Program-made: the position numbers and the translations under genes
Part shown: positions 3,957 to 18,145 of the stretch, in pieces
How the letters are laid out: every line of letters begins with the position of its first letter
Numbering within the stretch: the first letter of the stretch is position 1
Assembly (NCBI RefSeq): GCF_900167395.1
Contig: NZ_FUWK01000046.1
Location: forward strand, 1 to 19,335
Length of the DNA: 19,335 bases
Source: Nitrosomonas europaea
GTDB lineage: Bacteria; Pseudomonadota; Gammaproteobacteria; Burkholderiales; Nitrosomonadaceae
Direction of reading: 5' to 3'
Notes under the pieces: model-generated
Seen by the model: the letters and a program-made list of their open reading frames with translations, nothing else
Databases searched by the model: none
What the model was told of the DNA's origin: nothing

Positions 3957-5252
3957 TTACGGTAACGAGCTGAAATGATTGACGACGATGTGTCCACCGG
4001 AAATCACAAGATCAGGATACTCCAGCCGCTTCAGCTGTTGCTCAGGGTTGCCGCGAATTGCGATCAGATCAGCCGGAGCACCGGGTTGTATCGTCCCCAG
4101 CATAGGAATACCCAGATATCGGCCAGCTTTGGCTGTTGCAGCCCCTAATGCATCCAATAGTTTCATCTTCCCCAAGTGCATCAGATACATCAGCTCTTGC
4201 GCATCGATCCCCCATGGAATATCGGGATGGGCAATTTCCGTACCGTACAGTAATTCACCGCCAAGTTCTGTCCAGACCATTGTATTGTGTGCAATCCCGC
4301 TGCATTTCGAGAGTGTATCGAGCGTACCGATGATCGTGACATTCTGTGCTCTGGCCTGTTTCAGCAACGGCTCAGGAATCGGGTTACAAGGCATGTGCGC
4401 CCATTCATCGACCCCCGCATTCAACGCCACCTGTACACCCGATGGCTCTGCCACATGGGCCGATACCTTGCGCTGATGCCGGTGTGCTTCATCGACAACA
4501 GCCTTGACAATGGGCTCCGGCAACATGGGCCATGCCGACTGGTCATGTGAAGCAGCATGGGCATGATGGTGAGTGACGGCGGATGCGGTATGCGCTGCAT
4601 CATGGTGCGCGTGATCATGGTGTGAAGACCAGGGGGCACCTGCTTCGCTGCCGGGTTCGAGCGCAATCTTGATGATCACTGCACCCTCACCAACCAGATG
4701 ACGCACGGCTTCCCGCGCTTCTGCTTCGCTGGCAACGGGAATCGCCAGATCCCGGGCACCCATGGTAACGATCGGGTACCCGTGCGGTGCGGTGATGATC
4801 CGGCCGGAAGTGAGCACACGTAAACTGCCCTCTCCACCATAAGGCGGATGAACAGGCCCGCCCACATCCCGCAGGGTAGTCACCCCATGCCTCAGCACGA
4901 TATCTGCCGGTACTTTCTGGAAGGCCAAATGGGCATGTAATTCGATAAACCCCGGCAACAAGGTTGCATCACCCAGATCAATGTCAGCGGATGCATCCCC
5001 CGTCCTGAATGAATGACGCGGCCCGACTCTCGCAATGCGCCCGTCTTTCACCAGTACCGACAAACCACTGTGCATTTCATTTCCGTCGAAAACCCGAGCA
5101 GCGTGCAGCAGTAAAGACGAAGGTCCGGTTTTTCCAGTTTCCTGTGCATAAACCTGCGCAGAGAAACACAGTCCCGTTATCACCGCGACACAGAAACAGC
5201 ACATATGCCGCATGCGATTGGAAAGAGTATCAGTAAAGTTTTGTATCCTCAT
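3957..5252 (-). CDS. secreted metal-dependent amidohydrolase (Amidohydro_1 / COG1228-like) with a His-rich insertion
   Basis: 431 aa. The signal peptide is ...MCCFCVAVITGLCFSAQVYA/QE. It has the HxH motif FIELHAHL, a candidate carboxylated Lys in AVIIKIAL, and downstream His/Asp residues (SAHV, DEWAHM, ADLIAI). An AAGGA Shine-Dalgarno lies 8 nt before the ATG at 5252. The insert SSHHDHAHHDAAHTASAVTHHHAHAASHD lies at aa 209-237. Confidence 0.85.
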   Translation of the reverse strand: MRIQNFTDTLSNRMRHMCCFCVAVITGLCFSAQVYAQETGKTGPSSLLLHAARVFDGNEMHSGLSVLVKDGRIARVGPRHSFRTGDASADIDLGDATLLPGFIELHAHLAFQKVPADIVLRHGVTTLRDVGGPVHPPYGGEGSLRVLTSGRIITAPHGYPIVTMGARDLAIPVASEAEAREAVRHLVGEGAVIIKIALEPGSEAGAPWSSHHDHAHHDAAHTASAVTHHHAHAASHDQSAWPMLPEPIVKAVVDEAHRHQRKVSAHVAEPSGVQVALNAGVDEWAHMPCNPIPEPLLKQARAQNVTIIGTLDTLSKCSGIAHNTMVWTELGGELLYGTEIAHPDIPWGIDAQELMYLMHLGKMKLLDALGAATAKAGRYLGIPMLGTIQPGAPADLIAIRGNPEQQLKRLEYPDLVISGGHIVVNHFSSLP

Positions 5253-5282
5253 TTTCTATCCTTGGTTGATAACAAGTATTTT

Positions 5283-6401
5283 TCAACAGTCATAGGGGTC
5301 AATAAGGCCCGCCAGTACCGCAAGCGCAGCCACCAGAAAAAAATTTCCCCATACTGATTCAACTATCTCCTCCCGGTTTTGCCGGGTGCGATAACAACAC
5401 CCCTGGAACAGGCCAGCTGATCCAAAAGCTGAATCCGGATTGATTACAGTGAAATAAGGGCTGTGGAGAACGGTACTGATCTGCTGGTGAGCATATTTGC
5501 ACCAGGATGTTTCATCAGGCAGTAAACGTGCCAGAGATAACATCGCAAGCGATGCAATCACCACTGCGGAAGGATCTTTGACATCTTCTGTCTGATCCGG
5601 ACGATTGCGCGGCAAATTCCCCTTGTGCACATCACGCCAATACGTACAGGCAGCCCTGGCCTGACTCAAATAAGGCTCTCCCCATTGGGCCGCCGCTCTG
5701 CTTAACCCCAGCATGGCCCAGGCCTGGCCGCGTGACCAAACTCCTGCCCGGTCTTTCACCTGAAATTCATGACCATCGAAACTGGCTTCTGCATGAAATG
5801 CTCCCTTGTCTCCCCGGCATGCAGCCAGCAGCGTTTCTGCATGGCACTGTGCAATGCGGTGATACTGTTTTTCCCGGCTGAAGCAAAGCAGTTGAATCAG
5901 GGAAGCAAAATTATCCACGGAAATCGCGCAGCTTCCCGTGGTTAATCCTCCCATCGCCATACCTAAAGGGATGCAATTCAACCGGGGATCAAAGCTGTGC
6001 GCCAGCGCAGCAATGGATGAGTGAGTCAACTCGCGCGCCGGTGCATTCTGTAGCCAGATTTCTCCAAGCGCAGCGCCGTACCAGAAAATCAGGCTGCGAT
6101 ATCCGGAGTCCGCAGTTAGTTTCCGGAACAGCCGCTGGCTGATCTCGCCAGCCTTTTGCCGGTCTCCGGCCGATCCAGTCATCTTTGCCCGCAACCACCA
6201 GCATGCCGCCCAGAAACCGCCCATCCAGGATCCTCCCGGAGAAACAGACCAATCGCTGTTTTCCCCGGAAGAATAAAGCGGGAAATTCTGCCCGCAAAGC
6301 ACATCCATCATTTCCATGCGGCGAAACATCTGCTCCAGCGTATTCACGATTTCATCGGTGCTTAAAAGCCGATCTTCCACAATAAGTACTGGGGATGTCA
6401 T
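5283..6401 (-). CDS. (alpha/alpha)6-barrel protein, glycoside hydrolase family 88 (unsaturated glucuronyl hydrolase)-like
   Basis: By-eye colinear motif matches to Bacillus UGL as I remember it: SWMGGFWAACWWL (UGL DWTDGFWSGILWL), ISVDNFASLIQLL (IIIDCLLNLPLLL), VWSRGQAWAMLGL (TWTRGQAWGIYGF), KDPSAVVIASLAMLSLA (RDSSASAITACGLLEIA) and VWGNFFLVAAL (IWGDYYYLEAL). I prefer the ATG at 6401 (MTSPVLIV...) because a GAGGA lies 4-5 nt upstream and it sits 7 nt after the upstream stop. The track start at 6452 would overlap the upstream gene. No signal peptide is present. Confidence 0.65.
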   Translation of the reverse strand: MTSPVLIVEDRLLSTDEIVNTLEQMFRRMEMMDVLCGQNFPLYSSGENSDWSVSPGGSWMGGFWAACWWLRAKMTGSAGDRQKAGEISQRLFRKLTADSGYRSLIFWYGAALGEIWLQNAPARELTHSSIAALAHSFDPRLNCIPLGMAMGGLTTGSCAISVDNFASLIQLLCFSREKQYHRIAQCHAETLLAACRGDKGAFHAEASFDGHEFQVKDRAGVWSRGQAWAMLGLSRAAAQWGEPYLSQARAACTYWRDVHKGNLPRNRPDQTEDVKDPSAVVIASLAMLSLARLLPDETSWCKYAHQQISTVLHSPYFTVINPDSAFGSAGLFQGCCYRTRQNREEIVESVWGNFFLVAALAVLAGLIDPYDC

Positions 6402-6408
6402 TGCTTCC

Positions 6409-7959
6409 TCAGAAAACCAGATTGAAATTGACCAGAAAAATGCTGGCATCACTTTTACTCGGGTAAATACTTTTCATCGCACTGCCACCAAAGGCATGCG
6501 CAAAATAAAGTTGTGACGTGAGATATTTGTTAAAACCGTGCGTGAGGGTAACATCGATCAGTTGCCCTATCTCCCTGTGCCCATGTGTGGTACTGCCGGA
6601 ATAACCAAAAGCACCTGACTTAAGCGATGCACCAAGCCCGGTATAAAGCAGATCGTTCACGTTAGCCAGAGACAACTGATGCAGATTGACGTTGATCTGT
6701 GTTTTCCCGGTGGGGAAGGCGATGAATTCAAAAAAGATATCCTGAATATTCATCTGATTGTAAAACGGAAATTTGGCATACAAACGTCCGCTGGGTACGG
6801 CCGAAAAGAATGTCTGATGTCGGCCGTCATGCGCATTACCATCACCGGAACTGCGGTAATACACAGCGCGTACCCAGGGCTTAAATGGCAGCTTGTGCCA
6901 TTGATAACCCACTTCTGCATCGAAGGCCCAGGCCCGGTGCGATAAATTGGTCCAGCTGCCAAACTGGTATGCTCCCATCAATAAAGCATCAAAACTGCCG
7001 GAACCCAACGGCTGCAGCGACAACAGATGGGCACCAATGGTATGAATATTCAGTTTTTCATTGCTCAACTGCGGCCTTGCTGACAATGGACGATTATCGG
7101 TCACCTGCGATACCCGTTGATCATCGTAATTCAGGTAATACAGACGGCCTTCGATTCCCGGTAGTACAGCATCTTTTTTGCTGGTCAGCGCCGCATACAA
7201 TATGCTGATATCGCTGATTTGCTTCTGACCCTGAACGGTAAGATTGCCCTGCACTGGATGTACCCCACTGACCGTGGCATTGAATCCCGGCCCGTCATAC
7301 ACCACTGAAAATCCGTCGAAAGCACGCCCGACATAAATTGCGTTGAATCCGCCAACCAGCCGTTCCGCAATCCGCTTTTTTTTAAGTGCATCGAATTTCT
7401 CGACACCCGAGCGGTATTCCATCCCGTCGGCCAGTTCAAAACGGCCAATTTTTACAGCAGCCCCCGGTAGCCCCAGTTTATTGAACTTGAAATTCAGATA
7501 ACCCTGCTTCAGAAAAACATTACTCGCACCAGTAGTACGATTCGCCAGAAAGTAACCTGCACCCAGCCCCAATGCACCTCCCGAGGGTAGAACCGCATCA
7601 TCCGGCAATCCGTAGAGGCCACTATATTGGCCCTGCACAAAGCCATCCGCATAATCGCTGGAGAACATCAAACCCAACCGGGAACGCACCACCCACAAAT
7701 CGTAGCTGTTGTTGACTGCTGATGCCGGGCGAAAGTAATTCCAGTTTTCATAACTGCCAAGAAACTCGCCATTGATACGCAGATACTGATTTATCTGTTC
7801 CGGCGGCTGCCCGGCACGAGTAGCAGCAATACTGCTCACGAACAAACATACCGCCGGAAAACAGTAAAAAAACAGGATTCTCAGAACGGTATTCGACAAC
7901 GATGCGTTAAACAGCAAACGGTCTGACTGCTTCTGGAAAATCACCCGGTTTAATAACAT
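6409..7959 (-). CDS. outer-membrane beta-barrel protein, probably of the alginate-export (AlgE-like) porin family
   Basis: About 516 aa with alternating amphipathic, aromatic-rich strands and a C-terminal ...LVNFNLVF (terminal Phe). A hydrophobic signal-like segment ILFFYCFPAVCLFVSSIAATRA follows a long N-region. The track start at 7971 is TTG, and the first ATG is at 7959. A later TTG (LSNTVLRILFF) is also possible, so the start is uncertain. The family assignment is from general resemblance only. Confidence 0.7.
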   Translation of the reverse strand: MLLNRVIFQKQSDRLLFNASLSNTVLRILFFYCFPAVCLFVSSIAATRAGQPPEQINQYLRINGEFLGSYENWNYFRPASAVNNSYDLWVVRSRLGLMFSSDYADGFVQGQYSGLYGLPDDAVLPSGGALGLGAGYFLANRTTGASNVFLKQGYLNFKFNKLGLPGAAVKIGRFELADGMEYRSGVEKFDALKKKRIAERLVGGFNAIYVGRAFDGFSVVYDGPGFNATVSGVHPVQGNLTVQGQKQISDISILYAALTSKKDAVLPGIEGRLYYLNYDDQRVSQVTDNRPLSARPQLSNEKLNIHTIGAHLLSLQPLGSGSFDALLMGAYQFGSWTNLSHRAWAFDAEVGYQWHKLPFKPWVRAVYYRSSGDGNAHDGRHQTFFSAVPSGRLYAKFPFYNQMNIQDIFFEFIAFPTGKTQINVNLHQLSLANVNDLLYTGLGASLKSGAFGYSGSTTHGHREIGQLIDVTLTHGFNKYLTSQLYFAHAFGGSAMKSIYPSKSDASIFLVNFNLVF

Positions 7960-8015
7960 GAGCCTGCTCAAATCATTTTTGGTATAACTGACTTCTCAAT
8001 TTCAAAATACGCATC

Positions 8016-8807
8016 ATGATGGAACGTATTACATCCCGGGATGGCACGCCCATTGCCTGCTGGCGGCAAGGCAGCGGGCCACCCCTGCTGCTGGTACATG
8101 GCACCACCGGTGACCACTCCACCTGGGGATCGGTACTTGCCGGTCTGCAACAGCATCACACCGTGTGGACCCTCGACCGGCGCGGTCGTGGTCACAGCGG
8201 AGATGCTGCCAACTATTCGCTGGAGCATGAAAGCGAAGATATCGCTGCCGTCATCGATGCCATCGGCAGCAGCGTCAACCTGCTCGATCATTCTTTTGGC
8301 GGGCTTTGTGCGCTGGAAGCTTCACTTCTGACTGCAAACATCAACAAGGTTGTTTTATATGAACCGGCCATTTCATTGGCTGGCAGCGACTGGTCGGCAA
8401 CATTTGAAGCTCGCATGCAGGCTTTGCTGGAGAAAAATGCGCGTGAAGAAACACTGCTGCTGTTTTTTCGTGATCTGCTGAACACCCCCAATCCGGAGCT
8501 GGTTGCACTGCAAGCCGGATCAAACTGGGCGATACGGCTTGCTGCCGCCCACACCATCCTGCGGGAACTGCAAGGTATCGATCGTTATCAATTCACACCA
8601 CAACGATTCCAGACCCTGAAATCCCCGGTACTCCTGCTGGTGGGCGGGAATAGCCACCCGCGCCGCTTCATGACCGCAGAAAGACTGCAACAGGGCTTGC
8701 CTGATTGTCGTGTTGGTATTATTGCCGGTCAGCAACACAGTGCCATGCGAACCGCACCCGATCTGTTTGTTCACCATGTCCTCGAATTTCTCCAAAGTGC
8801 AGATTAA
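8016..8807 (+). CDS. alpha/beta-fold hydrolase
   Basis: 263 aa with the typical N-terminus ...GSGPPLLLVHGTTGDHSTW and the nucleophile elbow LLDHSFGGLCAL. It is convergent with the MFS gene, with 23 nt between the two stops. Confidence 0.85.
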   Translation: MMERITSRDGTPIACWRQGSGPPLLLVHGTTGDHSTWGSVLAGLQQHHTVWTLDRRGRGHSGDAANYSLEHESEDIAAVIDAIGSSVNLLDHSFGGLCALEASLLTANINKVVLYEPAISLAGSDWSATFEARMQALLEKNAREETLLLFFRDLLNTPNPELVALQAGSNWAIRLAAAHTILRELQGIDRYQFTPQRFQTLKSPVLLLVGGNSHPRRFMTAERLQQGLPDCRVGIIAGQQHSAMRTAPDLFVHHVLEFLQSAD

Positions 8808-8830
8808 CCCGGGCTATCGGCTTTTCGTAC

Positions 8831-10033
8831 TCAAACCGATACATGCGAGCGACGCTTGCGCACTGCGGTCAACCGCAATGTCATGATGCAGGCCAGGCAC
8901 AACACACCGGTCAACAGACTCCACGCAAGCGATACGCTGCCAGTTTGACTGAACAGCTGTCCATAAAGCGGTGGACCCAGCGCAAACCCGGAGAAGAATG
9001 CAAAAGAAACATAGCCGGAAGTTTCGGTCACCCGCCCGAATGCAGAATCTCTGATCAGCATACTCATTGCAATCGCATTGGTTGCAACTGCAGACATACC
9101 CATTCCGATCGCCCCGGCCCACAGGTACCCGTGGCTGCCAGGCCCAGCCTGCATCGTCAGCATGATCGCACCAGCAGCAATGGCAATCAGCGCAAACAGC
9201 AAATGGGATTCATCACTGAACTTATTGCCCAGCGGCGTCAATATGATTCGCGACAGCATTCCGGTGATGCCGAATACAGCGATCAGCGTACCTGCCTGTG
9301 CAAGCGGCATCTCCTGTAATGTGGCAAAAGTCGGCAGAAATGTCACAAATGCGGACAAGGCCAGACCAACACTGAACTGGATCGCCATCAGCCACGACAG
9401 CAACATATTCGGGCGCGTAAAAATCAGTTGCCTGTTTTTCCTGACGTGCTGTGCGGGCGTCACAAGCCATGCCGCAAGGCTGAACAGCACAGCGACCGGC
9501 ACGATAACACCAAACGCGATACGCCAGCCGTATTGGAATGCAATGGCAGGTAATACCAATCCGGCGAAAAGCGCAGCCAGCTGGACACCGGACTGTTTCA
9601 ATCCCACTATCCATGCCCTTTGTTCCGGCCGGATCTGGTGTGCAATCAGCAAATTGGTCGCCGGATTTGCCAGTGCCTGTGCGATACCGCAAATGGCTGT
9701 TGCCATGATCAGGCTGAAAAATGCTTGTGTTATTGCAATCAGTGCAAAAGCGGCAGCAACAGCACAAAAAAGAACAATCAATGCGGTACGTACACCAATG
9801 TAATCAACAATTGCGCCTGCTCGAAGCGACAGGATGGCCGCCAGACCAAATGAGCTCATGATCAGATAGCCAATGGCAACCGGTTCGAAACCGAGATCGC
9901 GGCTGAGTAACGGCCCCAGCGTACTGGTGGTATACAAAACAAGCATCGGTAGTGTCATGGCGAACACCAGGACTGCTTGCAACAAAACATCGGTCAGCGC
10001 GGATCGCGGTAATTGCCTGTAATCGACCGACAT
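8831..10033 (-). CDS. MFS transporter (about 12 TM segments), last gene of the thioacid operon
   Basis: About 400 aa and highly hydrophobic, with repeated TM segments in MFS-like 6+6 organisation. I prefer the ATG at 10033 (MSVDYRQLP...), which has an AGAGGA Shine-Dalgarno 7 nt upstream. The track start at 10081 is TTG and overlaps the ACAD stop. Confidence 0.85.
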   Translation of the reverse strand: MSVDYRQLPRSALTDVLLQAVLVFAMTLPMLVLYTTSTLGPLLSRDLGFEPVAIGYLIMSSFGLAAILSLRAGAIVDYIGVRTALIVLFCAVAAAFALIAITQAFFSLIMATAICGIAQALANPATNLLIAHQIRPEQRAWIVGLKQSGVQLAALFAGLVLPAIAFQYGWRIAFGVIVPVAVLFSLAAWLVTPAQHVRKNRQLIFTRPNMLLSWLMAIQFSVGLALSAFVTFLPTFATLQEMPLAQAGTLIAVFGITGMLSRIILTPLGNKFSDESHLLFALIAIAAGAIMLTMQAGPGSHGYLWAGAIGMGMSAVATNAIAMSMLIRDSAFGRVTETSGYVSFAFFSGFALGPPLYGQLFSQTGSVSLAWSLLTGVLCLACIMTLRLTAVRKRRSHVSV

Positions 10034-10077
10034 GAAATATCCTCTGGAAAGTGTTCGATTTCGTGAAAGATCAGAAC

Positions 10078-11277
10078 TCAATCAAACGGATAAACCGTGT
10101 GATGTTCATAATGACTGATCAGGCGGCGCCCCACCGAGCTGATCAGTGATTCATCATTGCCATCCAGAATGCGGGAAGTCCGTGCAATGCGATGAATACC
10201 GTAAAGCGGTGTCAAGTCACTCAGCCCTTCTGCACCATACAGCTGCATTGCACTATCAGAAGCAATGCATAAAGCCCTTGAAGCGGCCATTTTGGCAACG
10301 TTGATCGCGATTTCATCAGGGCACTGGGCATCAACGCCGCGCGCAGCGATGCGAACAAGCTCACGTGCACCGGCAATCGCCTGATAGGTGTTGAAGAAAT
10401 GCTGGCGTACAAGCTGTTTTTCTACCAGAAGCCCGAGTTTTCCCCGGGTTGAATGAACACGCCCGCCCATCAAATCCATACACCGCCGGGCAAGGCCAAT
10501 CCAGTTCATCGCGCGCAGCAACCGGCCAAGGCCAAGCCGTTTGTTCATCAGCTCCAGACCGCCACCACACACCCCTATCAAATAATGTTCGGGAACTTGT
10601 ACATCAGCCAGGGAAACTTCTCCCTGGCCGCAGGCATGTCCCATCATCATCAGTTGGCGCTCGACTCTGAAACCCGGCGTGTCGGCAGGTACTATGATCA
10701 TCGATAAGGCATGATCGAGGGCCGTTTCTTTGCCGGCTGTCCGCGCGAGAACTGTCATGAACGTGGCACGATCCGCATTGGAAATAAACCATTTCCTGCC
10801 ATTGACATGCCAGCGACCATTGGACAGATGCGCCGTGGTTGTGATCAGTCCTGGAATCGAACCGCTCTGGCCAGGCTCGGTCATGCCATAGCAGGGTAAT
10901 GCCTCCCCGTTTGCCATCGGTTGCAGAAACTGCTGCCGGATGATTGCGTTTCCGAATCGCGACAACATATGCGCATCGAGGGCGGTATGACTGGCAAAGA
11001 TCGCCTGGGAAAATTCTGTGCGTCCCTCCTGTTCCGCAACCAGCAAATAATCTTCCAGAGAGGCAATTTTTCCACCATGCGATAGCGGATAGAACAAACC
11101 GTACAAACCGGCCTGTCTGGCTTCAAGTGCCAGATCGGATTGCAACTGCAACGCCTGTGCACCCGGCCGGGAAAGTTGCGGCTCGTTCGGAATGATGATC
11201 TCGTCGACAAATTCCCTGACTTTCTGCGCCAATACCCTGGCTGTTTCTCTGTGACCACTGCTGAATGCCGGTAACAT
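10078..11277 (-). CDS. acyl-CoA dehydrogenase-family flavoprotein
   Basis: 399 aa with ACAD hallmarks: CYGMTEPGQSGS, WHVNGRKWFISNA, and C-terminal QLYGAEGLS...RIARTSRILDGNDES. Its ATG shares one base with the upstream ANL stop (TGATG at 11279-11275). Confidence 0.9.
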   Translation of the reverse strand: MLPAFSSGHRETARVLAQKVREFVDEIIIPNEPQLSRPGAQALQLQSDLALEARQAGLYGLFYPLSHGGKIASLEDYLLVAEQEGRTEFSQAIFASHTALDAHMLSRFGNAIIRQQFLQPMANGEALPCYGMTEPGQSGSIPGLITTTAHLSNGRWHVNGRKWFISNADRATFMTVLARTAGKETALDHALSMIIVPADTPGFRVERQLMMMGHACGQGEVSLADVQVPEHYLIGVCGGGLELMNKRLGLGRLLRAMNWIGLARRCMDLMGGRVHSTRGKLGLLVEKQLVRQHFFNTYQAIAGARELVRIAARGVDAQCPDEIAINVAKMAASRALCIASDSAMQLYGAEGLSDLTPLYGIHRIARTSRILDGNDESLISSVGRRLISHYEHHTVYPFD

Positions 11278-12959
11278 CAGTGCATCCTTGCTGAAAAATC
11301 CACTCTACTGACCACCGCAGCATTACTCTTGAATTGCGTATTTTCCAGTTCGGCAATCAACTGCTTTTTATCGACTTTTCCTGCCGGACTGAGCGGCAGT
11401 TGTCTCAAATAGCGCAGATACTCGGGTAGTTTGTTTTGCTCCAGACCGCGATCGAGCAAAAAACGGGCAAATTGCGCCAACGATGGCCGCTCGGCACCTT
11501 CGCTCATCACCAGGCACAGGCAGACACGGTGTCCCAGATCTTCATCCTCTACCGGGATGCAGGCTGCGCTGACGACAGCGGGATGGGATGCGGCAATATC
11601 TTCAATCTGCGCCGGGCTGATGTTGATACCACCACGAATGATGATTTCCTTTTTCCTGCCGGTCAGTACCAGATTACCCTGTTCATCGATAAATCCGAGA
11701 TCTCCGGTATACACCCAACCCTCGGCATCGCGGTACAACGCATCCAGCTCGGGATTATTGACATATTGCATAGGCGTGATGGGGCCGCGCGCAGCAATTT
11801 CACCAGTTTGGCCCTGCGCCAGTTCGTTCTTCCGATCATCGACAATTCTGATCGAGCATACCTCGGGATTAGGACGGCCGGTTGTATGCAGAACGGTAGT
11901 CATATTATCGTCCAGCATCGTATGGCAATTCACGCCATCAGCTGAACCATACAGATTGATGAAACTGCATCCGAATGCGCCACAGCAACGCAGGATCGAG
12001 GTTTCATCGATTTTTGCACCGCCACTGACGATTGCAACCAGGCTGGAAATATCGATCTTCGCCAGGTCCGGATCAGCTGCAATGCGCTGAAACATGGTCG
12101 GAACACCAAAAACATGCGTTGGTCTGAGTTGCCCAATCGCCCGAATCGTTGCCACAACATCAAACCGCGGCAACATAATCAGGGTTCCCCCCATCCAGGA
12201 CAACACACCGAATGTCGCTGACGAGCCGAAAGCCGTTCCCAGTGGCACCAGATAAAGCGCACGGAAATCTTTGTCCCGCGTGTGAATATGCTGCAGGAAA
12301 CGTCCACGCCCGCCCGCCAGTGCGTTATGGGAATAAGCAATCCATTTGGGATCTGCTTCAGTTCCGGAAGAAATCAGGAAACGTGCGGGTGAATCAGGAT
12401 CGACATCAGGCAGTTCTTCGGTAGCAATCGGCCGGGATTGAAATAGGTCGTTCAGCGTGTGCCAGCCTGTTCGTGCCACACCATCCACCACCAGTATCCG
12501 CAGCGACAGTAACGCAGGCCGCAGTGATTCGATCAGTTCACATAAATCCTGTTGCAGGAACAAGGGTTCAACCACGATTACACGCGCATCACATCGCTGC
12601 AATAGCGATTGAATGTCAAGGCGTCCGCGTCCTGGCGGGAAAGGTGCAACGATGGCACCCAATGCTGCCGCAGCCAGATCAATTGCGCAGTGATGCGCGC
12701 TATTGGCCAGCTGATAAGCAATGACATCGCCGGCAACCACCCCCAGATGCCGTAAACTGTTCGCCAGACGGGTAACTTTGTGCAGCAACTGCCGATAGGT
12801 TAGGGTGTGGTCCAGCGTGACCACAGCCGGTTTTTCAGGATTTTTCCGCGCATGCTCACAAAACAGGTCAAATAAGGATTTATCAGGATAAATCCCATCA
12901 TTTGTCCACTGTTGGCGAACCTCGGCAGGAACCAGATCGATAATGCCGGCGTGATTCAT
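11277..12959 (-). CDS. ANL-superfamily adenylate-forming enzyme (acyl-CoA ligase-like)
   Basis: 560 aa. Motifs: AMP-binding P-loop FLISSGTEADPK (one deviation from the classic S/T-G-x-P-K pattern), YGSADG, YTGDLG, GRKKEIIIRGGINISP and C-terminal PAGKVDKKQL. Its start overlaps the CoA-transferase stop as ATGA at 12959-12956. Confidence 0.9.
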   Translation of the reverse strand: MNHAGIIDLVPAEVRQQWTNDGIYPDKSLFDLFCEHARKNPEKPAVVTLDHTLTYRQLLHKVTRLANSLRHLGVVAGDVIAYQLANSAHHCAIDLAAAALGAIVAPFPPGRGRLDIQSLLQRCDARVIVVEPLFLQQDLCELIESLRPALLSLRILVVDGVARTGWHTLNDLFQSRPIATEELPDVDPDSPARFLISSGTEADPKWIAYSHNALAGGRGRFLQHIHTRDKDFRALYLVPLGTAFGSSATFGVLSWMGGTLIMLPRFDVVATIRAIGQLRPTHVFGVPTMFQRIAADPDLAKIDISSLVAIVSGGAKIDETSILRCCGAFGCSFINLYGSADGVNCHTMLDDNMTTVLHTTGRPNPEVCSIRIVDDRKNELAQGQTGEIAARGPITPMQYVNNPELDALYRDAEGWVYTGDLGFIDEQGNLVLTGRKKEIIIRGGINISPAQIEDIAASHPAVVSAACIPVEDEDLGHRVCLCLVMSEGAERPSLAQFARFLLDRGLEQNKLPEYLRYLRQLPLSPAGKVDKKQLIAELENTQFKSNAAVVSRVDFSARMH

Positions 12960-14848
12960 TGAAACCTCCAGGGTGAAGTGACTCTGGTATACGAACCGAT
13001 CTCAAGATACGGTTTCAGACGGGGATCACCATGCAGGTCATTAAGATCTTCGATAACGATGGCTGCCGGTACAGCAGCCTGCTGCAGAACAACCAGCCAT
13101 TCTGCAGCAGTCTTGCCCAGAAAGGATCTACCCAGCCGTTGCCATAATTCACTCTTATCTCCAGCAGACAAATCCAATGTCTGCATCAGCCGTAGTAATG
13201 TGTCATCATCGAGACATTCGATCGCAATTTTTCCCTTTCCCGTCTCGAAAACCCGATTGAGCACACTTTGCGCGGGCGGAACACAGTCGAAGAAATCGTG
13301 CCGGTTCTGAAAATCATCACTACACAACAATATTGCCGCACCCAGCAGCGAGGAAGTCACCTTAGCCCCTGCACAATTCAATTGGCGATTGAGCAAGGCA
13401 GCAGTAATGCCTTGCGCCGCAATGACTCCACCGAGCACATCCAGCGCCGTGAACAATGTTCCACCCTGTGTGCCGCAAGTTCGGGAAATTTTCTGTGCAA
13501 CGCCGGAATACGCCTGCACCATGAAATCTGTTCCCGGCAGCGACGGGGATCGTAATGATATTTCCCCGCCATCGGTAAACCAGCCAGATGCGTGTGCATA
13601 AATCAGGGCAGGATTTACACGACTCAGATCAGCGTAATCGAGATCCAGCTCAAGCGCCTTGCCAGGTGCCCAATTGTGCAGGAACACATCGGCATGTCTT
13701 GCCATTTCAGTGATTTCCTCCTGCCCGCAGGGAGATTTGATATCAATTTCACGGATGACCTTGAGCCGATTCAATGCATCAAACCGTACCGAGCATCCTT
13801 CTGATACCGGCGGCATCCCGCGCAACGGATCTCCCCCGGGAGGTTCGATACGAATCACCCGGGCACCGAGCAGTGCCAGCAAATGCCCGGCCAGCGGCCC
13901 CTGAATACGCCGACAGGATTCGATTACAGTAAGTCCGCTCAGCGGCAGTAAACCACTGGCGGATGTTAACGGCAATTCTGGTTGAGGTACCGCACAATCG
14001 AATACCCACGGTCCTTTCAGCCAGTTTGATTTGAAATGTTCGTCATCCATCCTTTCATCAAGCGTGCGGACACGACATATCGCCATACCGGCATCCGCGC
14101 AAAGCCTGGAAATATCTGCATATCCCAGCTTCGATACCGCACGGGTAAGTTCACCCGGAATGGGTGCGATGGCTTTTGCGTAGCGCAGCAGAAAAGCGGT
14201 CCAGCCCTTGCCAGCCAGCGTTCTGCTGATATCCAGTTGCGTCCAGAACCTTAGCCAGGGATCCGGATTGAGGGTTTCGAGTTCGAAAACGATGCCATCC
14301 GCTGATATGAATGGAGGGGCCGGGGAATGATCGGCATCAGCGGATGACAGATTTTCCGATGAGGATGTGCTCGTTGCATCGGCAATGTATTGCGAAGTAC
14401 TGAGCAAGGCTGCAGCCGCCATGGAAATATGGCTATCTGAAACAGCCAGGCCACGTAAATTACCGAGTGCTACGGCCATGCCACCTTGCAATGCCAGCGC
14501 AGTCGTAACGGTTGAAACATACTGAAGTCCGAACGGCTGAATTGCCCCGGTTGAACGCCCATGCACCGACATCAAACCACAGGCCGCCTGCATCATGCTT
14601 TCGGTGATGGCGCCCGGTTGATCGCAATCACTCCACCCGGTTATGACACAATTAACGAGCCTGGCCTGCGGTGCCCTGAAAACAAAAGAGAATGTCCCCT
14701 GATCAGCGTAATCATCAGCCTCGACCACTTTCAACCCCAGCCGGCCGGACTGGTAATTCAGGGAAAATCCCACTGCGGCAAAAGGAGACGGGGGCGTTCT
14801 GAAAGGCCCCGAAACCGTACAATCTTTCAGTGATTTGATCATGATCAT
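12956..14848 (-). CDS. family III CoA-transferase (CaiB/BaiF type) with an internal duplication: a degenerate N-terminal module plus a canonical C-terminal module
   Basis: The C-terminal half (about 12959-13957) reads LSGLTVIESCRRIQGPLAGHLLALLGARVIRIEPPGGDP ... HASGW ... PGTDFMVQAYSG (candidate catalytic Asp) ... ALDVLGGVIAAQGITAAL. The N-terminal half (about 13958-14848) repeats the same order in degenerate form: ITGW...AITESMMQAACG...VTTALALQGGMAVAL...FISADGIVFELETL. The track start at 14869 is TTG, and the first ATGs are at 14848 and 14842. Confidence 0.85.
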   Translation of the reverse strand: MIMIKSLKDCTVSGPFRTPPSPFAAVGFSLNYQSGRLGLKVVEADDYADQGTFSFVFRAPQARLVNCVITGWSDCDQPGAITESMMQAACGLMSVHGRSTGAIQPFGLQYVSTVTTALALQGGMAVALGNLRGLAVSDSHISMAAAALLSTSQYIADATSTSSSENLSSADADHSPAPPFISADGIVFELETLNPDPWLRFWTQLDISRTLAGKGWTAFLLRYAKAIAPIPGELTRAVSKLGYADISRLCADAGMAICRVRTLDERMDDEHFKSNWLKGPWVFDCAVPQPELPLTSASGLLPLSGLTVIESCRRIQGPLAGHLLALLGARVIRIEPPGGDPLRGMPPVSEGCSVRFDALNRLKVIREIDIKSPCGQEEITEMARHADVFLHNWAPGKALELDLDYADLSRVNPALIYAHASGWFTDGGEISLRSPSLPGTDFMVQAYSGVAQKISRTCGTQGGTLFTALDVLGGVIAAQGITAALLNRQLNCAGAKVTSSLLGAAILLCSDDFQNRHDFFDCVPPAQSVLNRVFETGKGKIAIECLDDDTLLRLMQTLDLSAGDKSELWQRLGRSFLGKTAAEWLVVLQQAAVPAAIVIEDLNDLHGDPRLKPYLEIGSYTRVTSPWRFQ

Positions 14849-14879
14849 CACTCTGGTGCTCAACAGCAAACAGATAAGT

Positions 14880-15152
14880 TCAACCTCCCGCTACCGCAGG
14901 CAGAATCGTCAACACATCACCATCACGCAGGCTGGTTGCCAGACCATCCTGGAAGCGGATGTCGTTATCATTGACGTATATATTGATGAAGCGATGGGCA
15001 TTGCCATTGGCAACAAGTTTTTCCTTGATTCCAGGATATTGCTGATCCATGTGATCGATGATTTCGGAAACTCTGCTGCCTTCCATATCAATGTGTTTCT
15101 GTTGATGGGTGAGTGGCCTCAATATGGTTGGAATAATGACTGTGATGGACAT
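14880..15152 (-). CDS. MoaD/ThiS-family beta-grasp sulfur-carrier protein, CysO-like, with a C-terminal Gly-Gly
   Basis: 90 aa: MSITVIIPTILRPLT...HRFINIYVNDNDIRFQDGLATSLRDGDVLTILPAVAGG, followed by a stop. It closely resembles M. tuberculosis CysO as I recall it (...HRFVNIYVNDEDVRF...TILPAVAGG). The TGA immediately follows GG (14882-14880). Confidence 0.9.
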   Translation of the reverse strand: MSITVIIPTILRPLTHQQKHIDMEGSRVSEIIDHMDQQYPGIKEKLVANGNAHRFINIYVNDNDIRFQDGLATSLRDGDVLTILPAVAGG

Positions 15153-15358
15153 AAGCGCAATACCCTTTCAGTAAATGGTTTTGTAACGAGGAGGCTGTTT
15201 TAAGAGGAGTAACGTAGCCATACCCCTGAAAAACCGTGCAATCCAGCATGTAACGTTCTCATTCGACGCGTAATCAAAAAAGTAAAAATTTTTTGAACGA
15301 TACGTACCATCGATCCGGAGCGATCAACTGAGGTTTTCAGGTTTAAAGACGGTGTTGA

Positions 15359-15805
15359 TCAAGCCACCATCATCTGGAATTCCAGTTCAGGCTGATATTG
15401 CCGGACGATCTGCACCCTTTCTTCGATCACCATCTGATCAACGATGCGGAAACTGCGGATTTCTTCCTTATGCGGAGAACAGGTTGGAATAATGACGTAA
15501 TGGGCCTGCGGCTCGGCAGCCAGCTCAACGTCACTACGGCTCGGGTATGCCTCGCTGCCAGTATGGGAATGATAAATAACAACCGGCTCTTCATGACGTG
15601 CACTCATTTCTTTCCAGACCTGCAACTGCTGCTGGGGATCAAACATAAAAAAATTCTCTGACTGTGCGACATTACGCATTGGAATCAGGCGTAGAGGCAG
15701 ATTGGAGCCAGCAAGACCGGCAATAATGCCGCAGGTTTCAATGGGGTGATCTTTTAATGACTGTGTAATCATGGCACTGATCAGCTTGGTATGAATCGTC
15801 AGCAT
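15359..15805 (-). CDS. JAMM/MPN+ (Mov34, Prok-JAB) zinc metalloprotease, Mec+/QbsD/PdtG-like
   Basis: 148 aa starting at the ATG at 15805 (MLTIHTKLISAM...), with a GGGAGA Shine-Dalgarno 9 nt upstream. It has the conserved Glu in HPIETCGII and an intact JAMM motif HSHTGSEAYPSRSD (HxHx7Sx2D). The track start at 15946 is GTG and would overlap moeZ by 40 nt, so I rejected it. Confidence 0.88.
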   Translation of the reverse strand: MLTIHTKLISAMITQSLKDHPIETCGIIAGLAGSNLPLRLIPMRNVAQSENFFMFDPQQQLQVWKEMSARHEEPVVIYHSHTGSEAYPSRSDVELAAEPQAHYVIIPTCSPHKEEIRSFRIVDQMVIEERVQIVRQYQPELEFQMMVA

Positions 15806-15906
15806 AATTTTTGTCTCCCGCTTAGTTTGTTGGTCGTTGTTACCGCTTTCCCTGTAACCTGGAGAAATTCGATTTGACTGGTTGAAACTAGCTCTGTGAT
15901 CCGTTG

Positions 15907-17079
15907 CTAATAGATCGGCAGCGATTGGTCGACTTCCCTGATCCACGCGAGAATCCCGCCATCCAGGCTTTTGACGTTGGTGAAACCTTGCTTCTGCATT
16001 TCGAGCAGCACATCACGTGAACGCATCCCCATCTTGCAGTGCAACACGATGAAATCCTCCTTGTTCATCGCGGCCAGAACCTCTTCTGACATGATGCGGC
16101 TCTTGGGAATATGTTTTGCGCCTTCAATGTGCACGATGTCCCACTCTTCGATTCCACGAACGTCGATAAGCTGGACATCCGTACCGTTCTCTTTAATTGC
16201 TTTCAGTTCACGTGCGCTGATTACCGGAATCGTATCCGCGTAAGTAGCTGAAACAGGATTGACGCTGCAAAACCTCTGGTAATCGATCAGCCCATCGATC
16301 GCAGTCCTGTTCGGAGCACGATGCAATGGGATGAAGCGGTAACTCATTTCCAGTGCATCGTAAACAGCCAATCGTCCGAGCATGGTTTCACCAATGCCGG
16401 TGATGAGCTTGATGGCCTCGGTTGCCATCATTGCCCCGATGGAAGCACACAAAATCCCCAGTACGCCTCCTTCGGCACACGAGGGCGCCATTTCAGGCGG
16501 TGGTGGTTCAGGGTATAAATCCCGATAATTCAGGCCCTTTCCGCCTGGAGCGTTTTCCCAGAATACGGAAACCTGGCCTTCGAACCGGAAAATGGATCCC
16601 CACACATAGGGTTTATCAGCCAGCACACAGGCATCGTTCACCAGATAGCGTGTTGCAAAATTATCGGTGCCATCGACTATCAGGTCATACCCCGATATAA
16701 CCGCATGTGCATTGACTACCTCAAGCCGTTCACGATGAAGATTAACCTTGACGTACGGATTCAATTCATTAATTGCATCACATGCACTTTCCGATTTTGG
16801 CCGGCCAATATCGGATTGTCCGTGAATGATTTGGCGCTGCAGATTGGATTCATCGACGACATCAAAATCAATAATCCCGATCGTACCCACACCCGCAGCA
16901 GCCAGGTATAACAACACTGGAGAACCCAGTCCTCCCGCTCCAATCACCAGCACTTTACTGCTTTTGAGCCGACGCTGGCCTATGAGACCTACTTCAGGAA
17001 TCAGCAGATGGCGGCTGTAACGTGAAATCTCATCCTTACTCAGTTCTGCTGCGGGATTAACTAACGGTGGCAAACGCAT
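15907..17079 (-). CDS. moeZ: MoeZ/MoeBR-type E1-like adenylyltransferase fused to a C-terminal rhodanese domain (sulfur-carrier-protein activating enzyme)
   Basis: 390 aa starting at the ATG at 17079 (MRLPPLVNPAAELSKDEISRYSRHLLIPEVG...), with a GGGAG Shine-Dalgarno 7 nt upstream. It has the ThiF/MoeB nucleotide loop VLVIGAGGLGSP, NYRDLYPEPPPPEMAPSCAEGGVLG, and the rhodanese active-site loop HCKMGMRS. It is very similar along its whole length to M. tuberculosis MoeZ as I remember it. Confidence 0.93.
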   Translation of the reverse strand: MRLPPLVNPAAELSKDEISRYSRHLLIPEVGLIGQRRLKSSKVLVIGAGGLGSPVLLYLAAAGVGTIGIIDFDVVDESNLQRQIIHGQSDIGRPKSESACDAINELNPYVKVNLHRERLEVVNAHAVISGYDLIVDGTDNFATRYLVNDACVLADKPYVWGSIFRFEGQVSVFWENAPGGKGLNYRDLYPEPPPPEMAPSCAEGGVLGILCASIGAMMATEAIKLITGIGETMLGRLAVYDALEMSYRFIPLHRAPNRTAIDGLIDYQRFCSVNPVSATYADTIPVISARELKAIKENGTDVQLIDVRGIEEWDIVHIEGAKHIPKSRIMSEEVLAAMNKEDFIVLHCKMGMRSRDVLLEMQKQGFTNVKSLDGGILAWIREVDQSLPIY

Positions 17080-17110
17080 ATAAACTCCCTGTTGTTTATT
17101 CCACGTGTTT

Positions 17111-17270
17111 GTTCCGATTATTCGTATCACTGATCACCCTTTTGATAAGCAAAAGGAAATGGCGCACGCTTTTAATTTGTATTCCGATTACATAAAAAAT
17201 CAGTATTCGCAAAATTTAAACTAAAAAATCGGAATTGAGAATGTGACAAATTGTCGCGCGTCAATTTGTC
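17111..17270. promoter_or_regulatory. candidate operator/promoter region of the moeZ-led operon: three copies of TTCCGATT plus a 9-8-9 palindrome
   Basis: GTTCCGATTA lies at 17111-17120, ATTCCGATTA at 17181-17190, and the inverted copy AATCGGAAT at 17227-17235. The perfect inverted repeat GACAAATTG (17245-17253)-N8-CAATTTGTC (17262-17270) sits just upstream of them. All lie 33-190 nt upstream of the moeZ ATG in an AT-rich 349-nt intergenic region. I could not pick out a convincing sigma-70 -35/-10 pair. Confidence 0.4.
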
Positions 17271-17479
17271 GCAGGCATGATCTGCCTGAACAGAAATGTA
17301 GCCAACAGACAGGAAATGCAGAATTTTTTTCCTGATGACCGGAAGCGTATTTGAACGAGAACAGGGGGGTAAAACTGATTGAGGCTGTGTCTGGATACTC
17401 CGGATGTCTGACTCCACTTTTTCAGATATCTCCCGGATCTTATCCAGTTGAAACGAAGGATAAAATTTATTGGAGGCGC

Positions 17480-18145
17480 TTACCTGCCCGGCCTGTGCTG
17501 ATCAGGTTCAGGCATAACACAATCAGCTTTCTCCAGAAAACCGGAGTGACCAAGCCTGACAGTTTCTCCTGTCTGGAATTGAGGGGGAGTTCGCTGCGTC
17601 ATGACATGGTAATGGCCATCATCCGCCAGCAAGCCGATTTTGAAATAAACCGGCTCCACGATATTCTTGTGAGGTGGAAAATATCCACTGCTTCCGGCCA
17701 CCGCCACATCAGCATAAAATAATTTTTCTCCATGCTGACCATACGGTATGGCTGCCATCCCCGGAATAAACGTATCGACACGACCAGGATCGCCATAATA
17801 TGGCTGCATCACGAATTCGATACGATCAACAATTCCACAACGGCCTGGTGCAAGTAACTGCGGTGGAATAAATGCTGCTGCCGCATCTGTGCTTCTGGTA
17901 CGGCGATAGGGAGGTTTTTTCAACTCGCTGTTATCCTGCCCGGCTTCTGTAGAAGAAAGTACGGCTGCCGGCCTGGATTTTCTTCGATCCCTGATTTCCT
18001 GATACCCGGTGAATGTATCCGCGCCAATTGCCTCTGCAACCTGCCGGGCATCCGAAACCGGAATATGTCCGGCTATGCCTGTTCCAGTCAGCAATAGCAA
18101 AAGCATTGCCTTTTTACAAAAAATGCGTGCCATGTAGCCAGACAT
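17480..18145 (-). CDS. secreted hypothetical protein
   Basis: 221 aa with a signal-peptide-like N-terminus MSGYMARIFCKKAMLLLLLTGTGIAG. A GGAG Shine-Dalgarno lies 6 nt before the ATG at 18145. I recognise no family motif. Confidence 0.6.
   Translation of the reverse strand: MSGYMARIFCKKAMLLLLLTGTGIAGHIPVSDARQVAEAIGADTFTGYQEIRDRRKSRPAAVLSSTEAGQDNSELKKPPYRRTRSTDAAAAFIPPQLLAPGRCGIVDRIEFVMQPYYGDPGRVDTFIPGMAAIPYGQHGEKLFYADVAVAGSSGYFPPHKNIVEPVYFKIGLLADDGHYHVMTQRTPPQFQTGETVRLGHSGFLEKADCVMPEPDQHRPGR

Follow-up and report, generated by a model that had tools for sequence, protein, structure and literature searches.

A probable pdt-type thiocarboxylate metallophore cluster in the ammonia oxidizer Nitrosomonas europaea

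The DNA analyzed here is contig NZ_FUWK01000046.1 of Nitrosomonas europaea, 19,335 nucleotides in length and referred to below as the window. It contains a seven-gene cluster that we consider likely to represent, in N. europaea, the thiocarboxylate metallophore clusters of the pdt type, with pdtFGHIJON and a gene for a GH88-like protein as its core. The pdt genes are those of the Pseudomonas cluster for PDTC, or pyridine-2,6-bis(thiocarboxylate). The seven genes have the same order and orientation in both organisms, their products are 49–69% identical, and in both a GH88-like gene follows the transporter gene. A preliminary description of this DNA had proposed a dedicated small-molecule pathway that leads from a carboxylate through an acyl-CoA to a thiocarboxylate and has its own sulfur module, and the pdt gene order together with these identities supports that proposal.

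Results

A one-genome-per-species scan with an alignment of the CoA-transferase returned 80 loci, 27 from ammonia oxidizers, 2 from methanotrophs and 51 from other organisms, against which all proteins of the window were compared by tblastn. The order in the window, namely E1-rhodanese, JAB metallopeptidase, sulfur-carrier protein (SCP), CoA-transferase, ANL-family ligase, acyl-CoA dehydrogenase (ACAD)-family flavoenzyme and major facilitator superfamily (MFS) transporter, is found in at least 25 of the 27 ammonia-oxidizer loci (Nitrosomonas, Nitrosospira and Nitrosovibrio), the shortfalls being truncated contigs. It is also found in both Methylococcales loci and in most of the 51 others, including those of Pseudomonas, Alcaligenes, Acidovorax, Thauera, Hahella and Vibrio/Photobacterium. 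Because the same order recurs across ammonia-oxidizer and other loci, the arrangement is not due to chance; the comparison across Nitrosomonas genomes that had been suggested earlier reveals a conserved gene order.

The PDTC cluster of P. kilonensis F113, a strain in which PDTC derivatives have been detected, has the order pdtCKPELMFGHIJON (PMC7415375). The locus of Pseudomonas sp. GM50 (L075) encodes, in sequence, a methyltransferase (P), an MFS protein (E), an 885-residue protein (L), an 845-residue aminotransferase fusion (M), F, G, H, I, J, an ACAD and an MFS protein. Since the order is identical in the published F113 cluster and in L075, the genes of the window correspond to pdtFGHIJON, the letters O for the ACAD and N for the MFS protein being deduced from gene position. 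The E1-rhodanese (PdtF), the JAB protein (PdtG) and the ThiS/MoaD carrier (PdtH) are encoded together, as in the definition of Iyer 2006, and in the tblastn comparison the ACAD and MFS genes come after PdtJ, in the Pseudomonas order. The median identity to fluorescens-group Pseudomonas is about 68–69% for the E1, 51% for the JAB protein, 59% for the SCP, 51% for the CoA-transferase, 62% for the ligase, 52% for the ACAD and about 49% for the MFS protein.

In the open reading frame (ORF) map of the window, all seven core ORFs are present and consecutive between 8831 and 17130. They lie on the minus strand, a detail left unstated in the preliminary description, whose seven co-directional genes and their coordinates were all confirmed. 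The Pfam and NCBIfam profile searches that had been proposed for the seven proteins matched the expected families in every one. The E1-rhodanese (PdtF-like; 15907-17079, minus strand) starts with an ATG at 17079, with an upstream extension of its ORF to a GTG at 17130. It matches ThiF (1.5e-78) and Rhodanese (1.1e-17), its translation contains a GxGxxG motif and the rhodanese loop HCKMGMRS, and its score against the NCBIfam MoeZ model is 626 bits, with a cutoff of 647. The JAB/JAMM metallopeptidase (PdtG/QbsD/Mec+-like; 15359-15805, minus strand; inferred tag NE2352) matches Prok-JAB (1.3e-29) and carries an E...HSHx7SxxD motif. The SCP, of the ThiS/MoaD fold (PdtH/QbsE/CysO-like; 14880-15152, minus strand; inferred tag NE2351), is a 90-residue protein matching ThiS (6e-18), and its sequence ends in PAVAGG immediately before the stop codon, i.e., in an uncapped Gly-Gly.

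The remaining four core genes are also on the minus strand. The CoA-transferase (PdtI-like; 12956-14848; NE2350) has 630 residues and matches CoA_transf_3 (7.7e-68) in two stretches; its 90%-identity cluster contains CAD86262.1 of N. europaea ATCC 19718. The ANL-family acyl-CoA ligase (PdtJ/PtmA3-like; 11277-12959; NE2349) matches AMP-binding (1e-59) and AMP-binding_C, and the ACAD-family flavoenzyme (PdtO-like; 10078-11277; NE2348) contains all three ACAD domains. The MFS transporter, the presumed exporter (PdtN-like; 8831-10033; NE2347), matches MFS_1 (9e-34).

The gene junctions were read directly from the sequence. At the transferase/ligase junction, caATGAat at 12959-12956 gives an ATGA overlap, and at the ligase/ACAD junction, cacTGATGtt at 11279-11275 gives a TGATG overlap. 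The TGA of the ACAD gene, at 10080-10078, is followed after 44 nt by the ATG of the MFS gene at 10033, which is preceded by GAGGA. Both overlaps and the 44-nt gap are as they had been described. The remaining gaps measure about 100 nt (E1-JAB), 206 nt (JAB-SCP) and about 30 nt (SCP-CoA-transferase). The genes for the MFS protein, ACAD, ligase and transferase (NE2347, NE2348, NE2349 and NE2350) were jointly down-regulated in a 2024 RNA-seq paper (PMC11024918), and this published co-regulation, together with the translational coupling, supports an operon.

The transferase is a true two-domain protein, since its N-terminal 300 residues match CoA_transf_3 on their own (E 4e-11). The PGTDF sequence of the C-terminal domain aligns with PGYDF, the catalytic-Asp motif of formyl-CoA transferase, and its Asp is invariant in 16 diverse homologues; judged from this alignment and these homologues, the protein has a catalytic Asp of the PtmU4 D430 type. 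An internal repeat relates T-E90-SMMQAA-C97-G of the N-domain to T-D448-FMVQAYSG of the C-domain (numbering of the 637-residue ORF). A Glu and a Cys are retained almost without exception in the N-domain, which may therefore be more than a mere scaffold. A metagenomic protein of 737 residues (P0065) is a natural fusion of a MoaD/ThiS carrier domain to a two-domain CoA-transferase (PF02597 and PF02515), and provides direct genetic support for a sulfur hand-off from carrier to transferase.

The earlier proposal presupposed that the transferase and the ligase are not catabolic enzymes, and this holds in the NCBIfam comparison, where both fall far below every catabolic equivalog cutoff. The best catabolic score of the transferase is 105 bits, compared with a cutoff of 750. 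Assignment to the catabolic type III CoA-transferases (CaiB, Frc, YfdE, succinyl-CoA:mesaconate) was rejected on these cutoffs and on architecture, since the protein has 630 residues and two domains, whereas the catabolic enzymes are single-domain proteins of about 400 residues.

These results bear on another explanation, in which the E1, the JAB protein and the carrier form a primary sulfur relay, either for cysteine (CysO/MoeZ/Mec+), for the molybdenum cofactor or for thiamine, and merely lie beside an unrelated catabolic operon of ligase, CoA-transferase and ACAD. The E1 score just below the MoeZ equivalog cutoff, a carrier that is uncapped like CysO, and the gaps of 100-206 nt between the E1, JAB and SCP genes would fit such a relay. 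However, no gene for a CysM-like (PALP-type) pyridoxal phosphate enzyme was found by Pfam among the large ORFs of the window, consistent with the lack of such a gene in the preliminary description. Moreover, the genes of the trio, the transferase and the ligase form one ordered series in about 70 of the 80 loci, across β- and γ-proteobacteria. With the direct MoaD-transferase fusion and the wide distance to all catabolic equivalogs also against it, we regard this explanation as very improbable.

Of 74 members of the carrier family, 57 terminate in an uncapped GG, as the carrier here does, and a minority bear caps in the form of GGC, GGAR or longer tails. Even so, about 75 of the 80 loci keep the JAB gene. 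Its retention in nearly all loci, although most carriers are uncapped, suggests that the role of the JAB protein may go beyond cap removal. The loci recorded beside this carrier-cap and JAB observation include L017, L019, L021, L037, L039 and L055.

An E1, a β-grasp protein and a JAB protein also make up the minimal parts list of a ubiquitin-like conjugation or anti-phage system, in which the JAB protein would act as a deconjugase. The E1 adenylation core gives weak PADLOC matches (at most 74 bits) to the 'E1-E2' protein Cap2 of the CBASS anti-phage systems. Yet there is no E2 domain, the JAB protein and SCP have no PADLOC match, the rhodanese domain of the E1 is a signature of sulfur transfer, and the genes are strictly linked to small-molecule CoA enzymes and transporters. 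A conjugation or defense function is therefore extremely unlikely. As a defense-system candidate, the locus was set aside because PADLOC gives only generic E1-core matches.

For the ACAD, the closest solved structure is that of ACAD11 (E 2e-40). As in mammalian ACAD10/11, an Asp occupies the position of the usual catalytic Glu (RILDGNDE, compared with RLADGPDE in ACAD11), and this Asp is kept in all PdtO-type homologues that span the position (67 of 68 aligned).

The preliminary description had confined a "self-contained" cluster to 8831-17079. This limit does not stand, since a GH88-like gene and three further genes located downstream are conserved beside the core, so that the conserved block spans 3957-17130. 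Nor is the cluster obviously self-contained; it has no evident scaffold-building gene. The first of these genes encodes a protein of 372 residues with a GH88-type (α/α)6-barrel fold, annotated as 'glucuronyl hydrolase' (5283-6401, minus strand). It has no Pfam or NCBIfam match; a profile of 24 homologues matches the unsaturated glucuronyl hydrolase 1VD5/2AHF (E 5e-19). Its AlphaFold2 model has a predicted confidence (pLDDT) of 91.9, and Foldseek aligns it to unsaturated glucuronyl hydrolase with a TM score of about 0.8. In the profile alignment, D149 of the Bacillus enzyme pairs with the invariant D163, whereas D88 pairs with a non-Asp position beside the invariant R102. The active site thus looks remodeled, as the equivalent of D88 is not an Asp. 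In Pseudomonas, the GH88-like gene (L075:15571-17022) comes after that for the MFS protein. It also occurs in Streptomyces L077 (L077:14898-15935) and L078, where it lies beside the CoA-transferase, ligase, ACAD and MFS genes without the sulfur trio. In the literature, we found no description of a role of this protein in a thioacid pathway.

The three other genes distinguish the ammonia-oxidizer version from the Pseudomonas pdt cluster. An α/β-hydrolase (8016-8807, plus strand; Abhydrolase_6/1), convergent with the MFS gene, is found in 20 of the 27 ammonia-oxidizer loci and in both methanotroph loci, and an outer-membrane β-barrel of the Alginate_exp (AlgE-like) family (6409-7959, minus strand; 5e-23), with an N-terminal signal-like segment, in 22 of the 27 and in both; each is found in none of the 51 other loci. 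The third is a periplasmic protein of the amidohydrolase superfamily (3957-5252, minus strand; Amidohydro_1), with a signal peptide, found in 20 of the 27 ammonia-oxidizer loci and likewise in none of the 51. Within this cluster type it is specific to ammonia oxidizers and methanotrophs. It has a His-rich insert, SSHHDHAHHD...THHHAHAASHD, with 11 His in 49 residues. Such an insert, with 6-15 His in 39-72 residues, is found in all homologues but one, which is truncated, and this suggests a metal-binding loop. The composition of the insert is conserved; its sequence and length are not.

Outside the ammonia oxidizers, the nitrite oxidizer Ca. Nitrotoga sp. HW29 has a 59%-identical amidohydrolase homologue (L081:9395-10648) located beside a flavohemoglobin gene and transposase fragments, with no thioacid genes. 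The amidohydrolase can therefore occur independently, and was abandoned as an indicator of the cluster beyond nitrifiers.

One other gene lies near the cluster. Between lysS and the cluster, positions 17480-18145 (minus strand) encode a predicted secreted protein of 221 residues, which has no Pfam or NCBIfam match and is not conserved beside the cluster elsewhere.

In a neighbor-joining tree of the ligase, ammonia oxidizers and Methylococcales form one clade, apart from Pseudomonas and Alcaligenes, and the internal structure of this clade follows the taxonomy of Nitrosomonas and Nitrosospira. Based on this tree, the cluster appears to be ancient in Nitrosomonadaceae and to have been exchanged with methanotrophs, rather than being a recent island, which agrees with the lack of a plasmid match, repeats or tRNA. 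An origin as a mobile element or island was considered and rejected: there is no plasmid match and there are no meaningful repeats, the GC difference is only mild, and the ligase tree follows nitrifier taxonomy.

The region upstream of the E1 gene contains a candidate operator, a near-perfect palindrome of 30 bp (17243-17272) that precedes the E1 start codon by about 165-195 nt. Made up of two 15-bp GCGACAA-N-TTGTCGC sites, which read on the gene strand as GCGACAAATTGACGC followed by GCGACAATTTGTCAC, it occurs only once in the window. Seven loci (L001-L004 and L006-L008) of N. europaea, N. eutropha and N. ureae type have the palindrome at the corresponding position before E1, and the Nitrosospira clusters lack it in their upstream regions.

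Regulation by Fur was rejected, as the window contains no 19-mer Fur box with three or fewer mismatches. Within 350 nt upstream of E1, most ammonia-oxidizer loci have no Fur box even at six or fewer mismatches, and the few marginal matches with five to six mismatches are not conserved. A single 7-1-7 Fur match sits in coding sequence, at chance frequency. Control by a riboswitch or another RNA was also rejected, since no Rfam family and no tRNA was found in the window. Judging from the sequence, the cluster is probably controlled by a repressor or activator acting at the 30-bp palindrome, and not by Fur. The palindromic candidate operator and the lack of a Fur box are a further difference from the Pseudomonas pdt cluster.

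Another difference from the Pseudomonas cluster concerns PdtP (methyltransferase), PdtE (MFS permease), PdtL and PdtM. With the L075 proteins as tblastn queries, none of the four has a match in the window or in the 29 ammonia-oxidizer and methanotroph loci. PdtM (L075:5269-7806) scores as PigE in NCBIfam, with 1431 bits, above the cutoff, and PdtL (L075:2615-5272) is PigD-like, with 673 bits, below the cutoff. In prodigiosin synthesis, the PigD/PigE pair of a thiamine diphosphate enzyme and an aminotransferase, which serves the construction of the MAP ring, builds a cyclic imine. The resemblance of PdtL and PdtM to this pair hints that the Pseudomonas PDTC ring may arise by a Stetter-type addition and transamination, and not from dipicolinate. 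Because both are absent in nitrifiers, the ring precursor there must come from elsewhere, or the product differs.

Another possibility is that the enzymes work in the same way toward a product other than PDTC, the version in ammonia oxidizers and methanotrophs making a different thiocarboxylate from a different acid. The absence of PdtL, PdtM, PdtP and PdtE throughout this group, the ring-building character of PdtL and PdtM, the presence of the α/β-hydrolase, porin and amidohydrolase genes in none of the 51 other loci, and the separate clade of the ligase are all in line with this possibility. However, the identities of the ligase (62%) and of the ACAD (52%) to their Pseudomonas counterparts are far above the level between thioacid ligases that act on different substrates, which is only about 30% (Dong 2018, PMC6006322). 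Furthermore, PdtL and PdtM are also missing in Alcaligenes and in several Pseudomonas clusters that keep the same core, so that they look accessory; PdtL, PdtM, PdtP and PdtE may thus be accessory rather than defining. A product other than PDTC must be taken seriously, although we lean against it.

In Nitrosospira, Nitrosovibrio and several non-nitrifiers, the cluster adjoins a gene for a TonB-dependent receptor of a distinct subfamily, and these loci all lack PdtL and PdtM. The receptor is encoded at L014:5680-7665, with equivalents in L009, L013, L015-L021, L025, L030, L033, L035, L037 and L038, as well as in L041, L043, L047, L048, L055 and L067. This Nitrosospira-type receptor has no homologue in the window, and none was found beside the clusters of the N. 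europaea lineage.

Discussion

We propose that the pathway begins with the E1-rhodanese, which would adenylate the Gly-Gly terminus of the SCP, so that the rhodanese persulfide could convert the carrier to its thiocarboxylate, by homology to MoeZ/CysO, QbsC/QbsE and PtmS4/PtmS2. The ANL ligase would turn a small carboxylic acid into its CoA thioester, as shown for PtmA3. An Asp-dependent thiolysis, as shown for PtmU4, would then yield R-COSH and regenerate CoA. These three steps follow the published biochemistry of the homologues and are carried over to N. europaea by homology and synteny. The ACAD, with its ACAD10/11-like Asp base, would act on a CoA-bound intermediate. Its most likely role may be to desaturate or aromatize an N-heterocycle that is partly reduced, for example a dihydro- or hydroxy-tetrahydro-dipicolinoyl-CoA derived from the lysine pathway, and the GH88-fold protein may hydrate or dehydrate this ring. 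The dipicolinate substrate, a speculation of the preliminary description, is compatible with this mechanism.

The product, which would be exported by the MFS protein, is expected to be PDTC or a close heterocyclic (bis)thiocarboxylate with metal-binding properties. The JAB protein would trim capped carriers or, the carrier here being uncapped, recycle carrier adducts. The α/β-hydrolase, the porin and the His-rich amidohydrolase probably handle outer-membrane passage together with periplasmic metal hand-off or hydrolytic release.

A metallophore function is favored by the TonB-dependent receptor that Nitrosospira, Nitrosovibrio and several non-nitrifiers encode directly next to this cluster, and by the periplasmic hydrolase with a His-rich insert next to the cluster. 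Several observations weigh on the other side. No product has ever been detected, and N. europaea is reported to be negative in the chrome azurol S (CAS) assay in both Fe-replete and Fe-limited media (PMC3050691). The window contains no linked TonB-dependent receptor, although Pseudomonas PdtK and the AraC-type regulator PdtC themselves were not searched for, and there is no Fur box upstream of the cluster. With PdtP, PdtE and the plausible ring-building pair PdtL/PdtM absent, the precursor may be a different one, and the product may accordingly not be PDTC. The cluster also contains no scaffold gene, e.g., a DapA paralogue. The roles considered for the ACAD and the GH88-like protein are argued from chemical plausibility, and the E1 could also serve primary sulfur metabolism, as its score lies almost at the MoeZ equivalog cutoff. 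A DapA-like scaffold gene was looked for as a candidate and found neither in the window nor among the flanking ORFs scanned in Streptomyces L077.

The accessory set of the ammonia-oxidizer and methanotroph clusters, together with the lack of Fur control, leaves room for a non-iron, possibly copper-related, role. The product of this version could be a thiocarboxylate chalkophore or another soft-metal carrier, which supplies or buffers Cu for two copper-containing membrane enzymes, ammonia monooxygenase (AMO) and particulate methane monooxygenase, and not an Fe siderophore. The outer membrane would then be crossed by way of the porin, with hydrolysis of the thioacid in the periplasm freeing the metal. 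The added AlgE-like porin, the His-rich periplasmic amidohydrolase and the α/β-hydrolase are consistent with such a carrier, as are the palindromic candidate operator in place of a Fur box and the CAS-negative phenotype of N. europaea under iron limitation. We nevertheless consider this copper role rather unlikely.

The relation of a pdt-type cluster to other carrier-dependent systems can be seen from their gene content. The mycobacterial CysO/MoeZ/Mec+/CysM pathway shares the E1-rhodanese, the uncapped GG carrier and the JAMM protease, and differs in that CysM is absent here and the acceptor would be an acyl-CoA handled by the CoA-transferase homologue. The qbs cluster for thioquinolobactin in P. 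fluorescens likewise combines an E1-rhodanese, a JAMM protein and a carrier with a CoA-transferase homologue and a ligase (QbsC/D/E and QbsK/L) in one siderophore cluster. However, QbsE is capped and requires trimming by QbsD, whereas the N. europaea carrier ends in GG. The qbs cluster also has genes of the tryptophan/kynurenine pathway for its quinoline scaffold, and no such genes are present in the N. europaea window.

In the thioplatensimycin system with PtmA3 and PtmU4 (PMC6006322), the sulfur source is likewise a thiocarboxylated carrier protein, formed by an E1 of the MoeZ type, and the system includes a JAMM protease. The two tandem type III CoA-transferase domains and the ligase within two genes of the transferase, which characterize the PtmA3/PtmU4 type, are found here as well, the two genes being adjacent and overlapping. 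In contrast to N. europaea, where the sulfur-carrier genes are inside the operon, those of Streptomyces platensis lie elsewhere in the genome. Moreover, the substrate there is an aminobenzoate, and no ACAD or GH88-like partner has been described for ptm. The identity to actinobacterial homologues is about 40%. The preliminary description had likened the ligase/transferase pair to the platensimycin one; this likeness has to be revised, as the pair, together with the ACAD and the MFS protein, are themselves pdt genes (PdtI, J, O and N).

The cluster is not new. Iyer, Burroughs and Aravind listed N. europaea in 2006 (Table 1, row 4a) for a 'siderophore biosynthesis' neighborhood comprising PdtH, PdtF, PdtG, PdtI (CaiB-like) and PdtJ (AMP ligase) (PMC1779556). 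Dong et al. showed biochemically in 2018 that PtmA3 makes acyl-CoA, noted pdt OrfI/J and QbsK/L as homologues, and included in their Supplementary Data 2 thioacid cassettes from other ammonia oxidizers, namely Nitrosomonas sp. Is79A3, N. communis and Nitrosospira spp. (PMC6006322). What is added here is the larger conserved block, the accessory genes, the absence of PdtL/M/P/E and the palindrome without a Fur box. A literature search on the pdt gene names and on the tags NE2343-46 and NE2353-54 found nothing useful. In the nitrifier literature, N. europaea is still scored as having neither siderophore nor chalkophore biosynthesis (PMC9693385; PMC3050691), and the preliminary description was correct that the organism is described as having no siderophore biosynthesis genes.

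Conclusions

Contrary to the published scoring as an organism without a chelator, N. europaea possesses a homologue of the PDTC pathway that is intact and translationally coupled, and the cluster is also found in Nitrosomonas, Nitrosospira and Nitrosovibrio representatives among the loci retrieved. The value of this observation is that it joins two literatures and defines a testable variant; the system itself is of a known kind. With the conserved ACAD and its GH88-like partner, there is a way to test where the PDTC ring comes from. PDTC is a high-affinity ligand of Cu, Fe and Zn. Should the cluster be expressed, nitrifiers would secrete a sulfur-based chelator, which would bear on the supply of Cu and Fe for AMO and cytochromes, on competition with archaeal ammonia oxidizers, and on metal-based control of nitrification.

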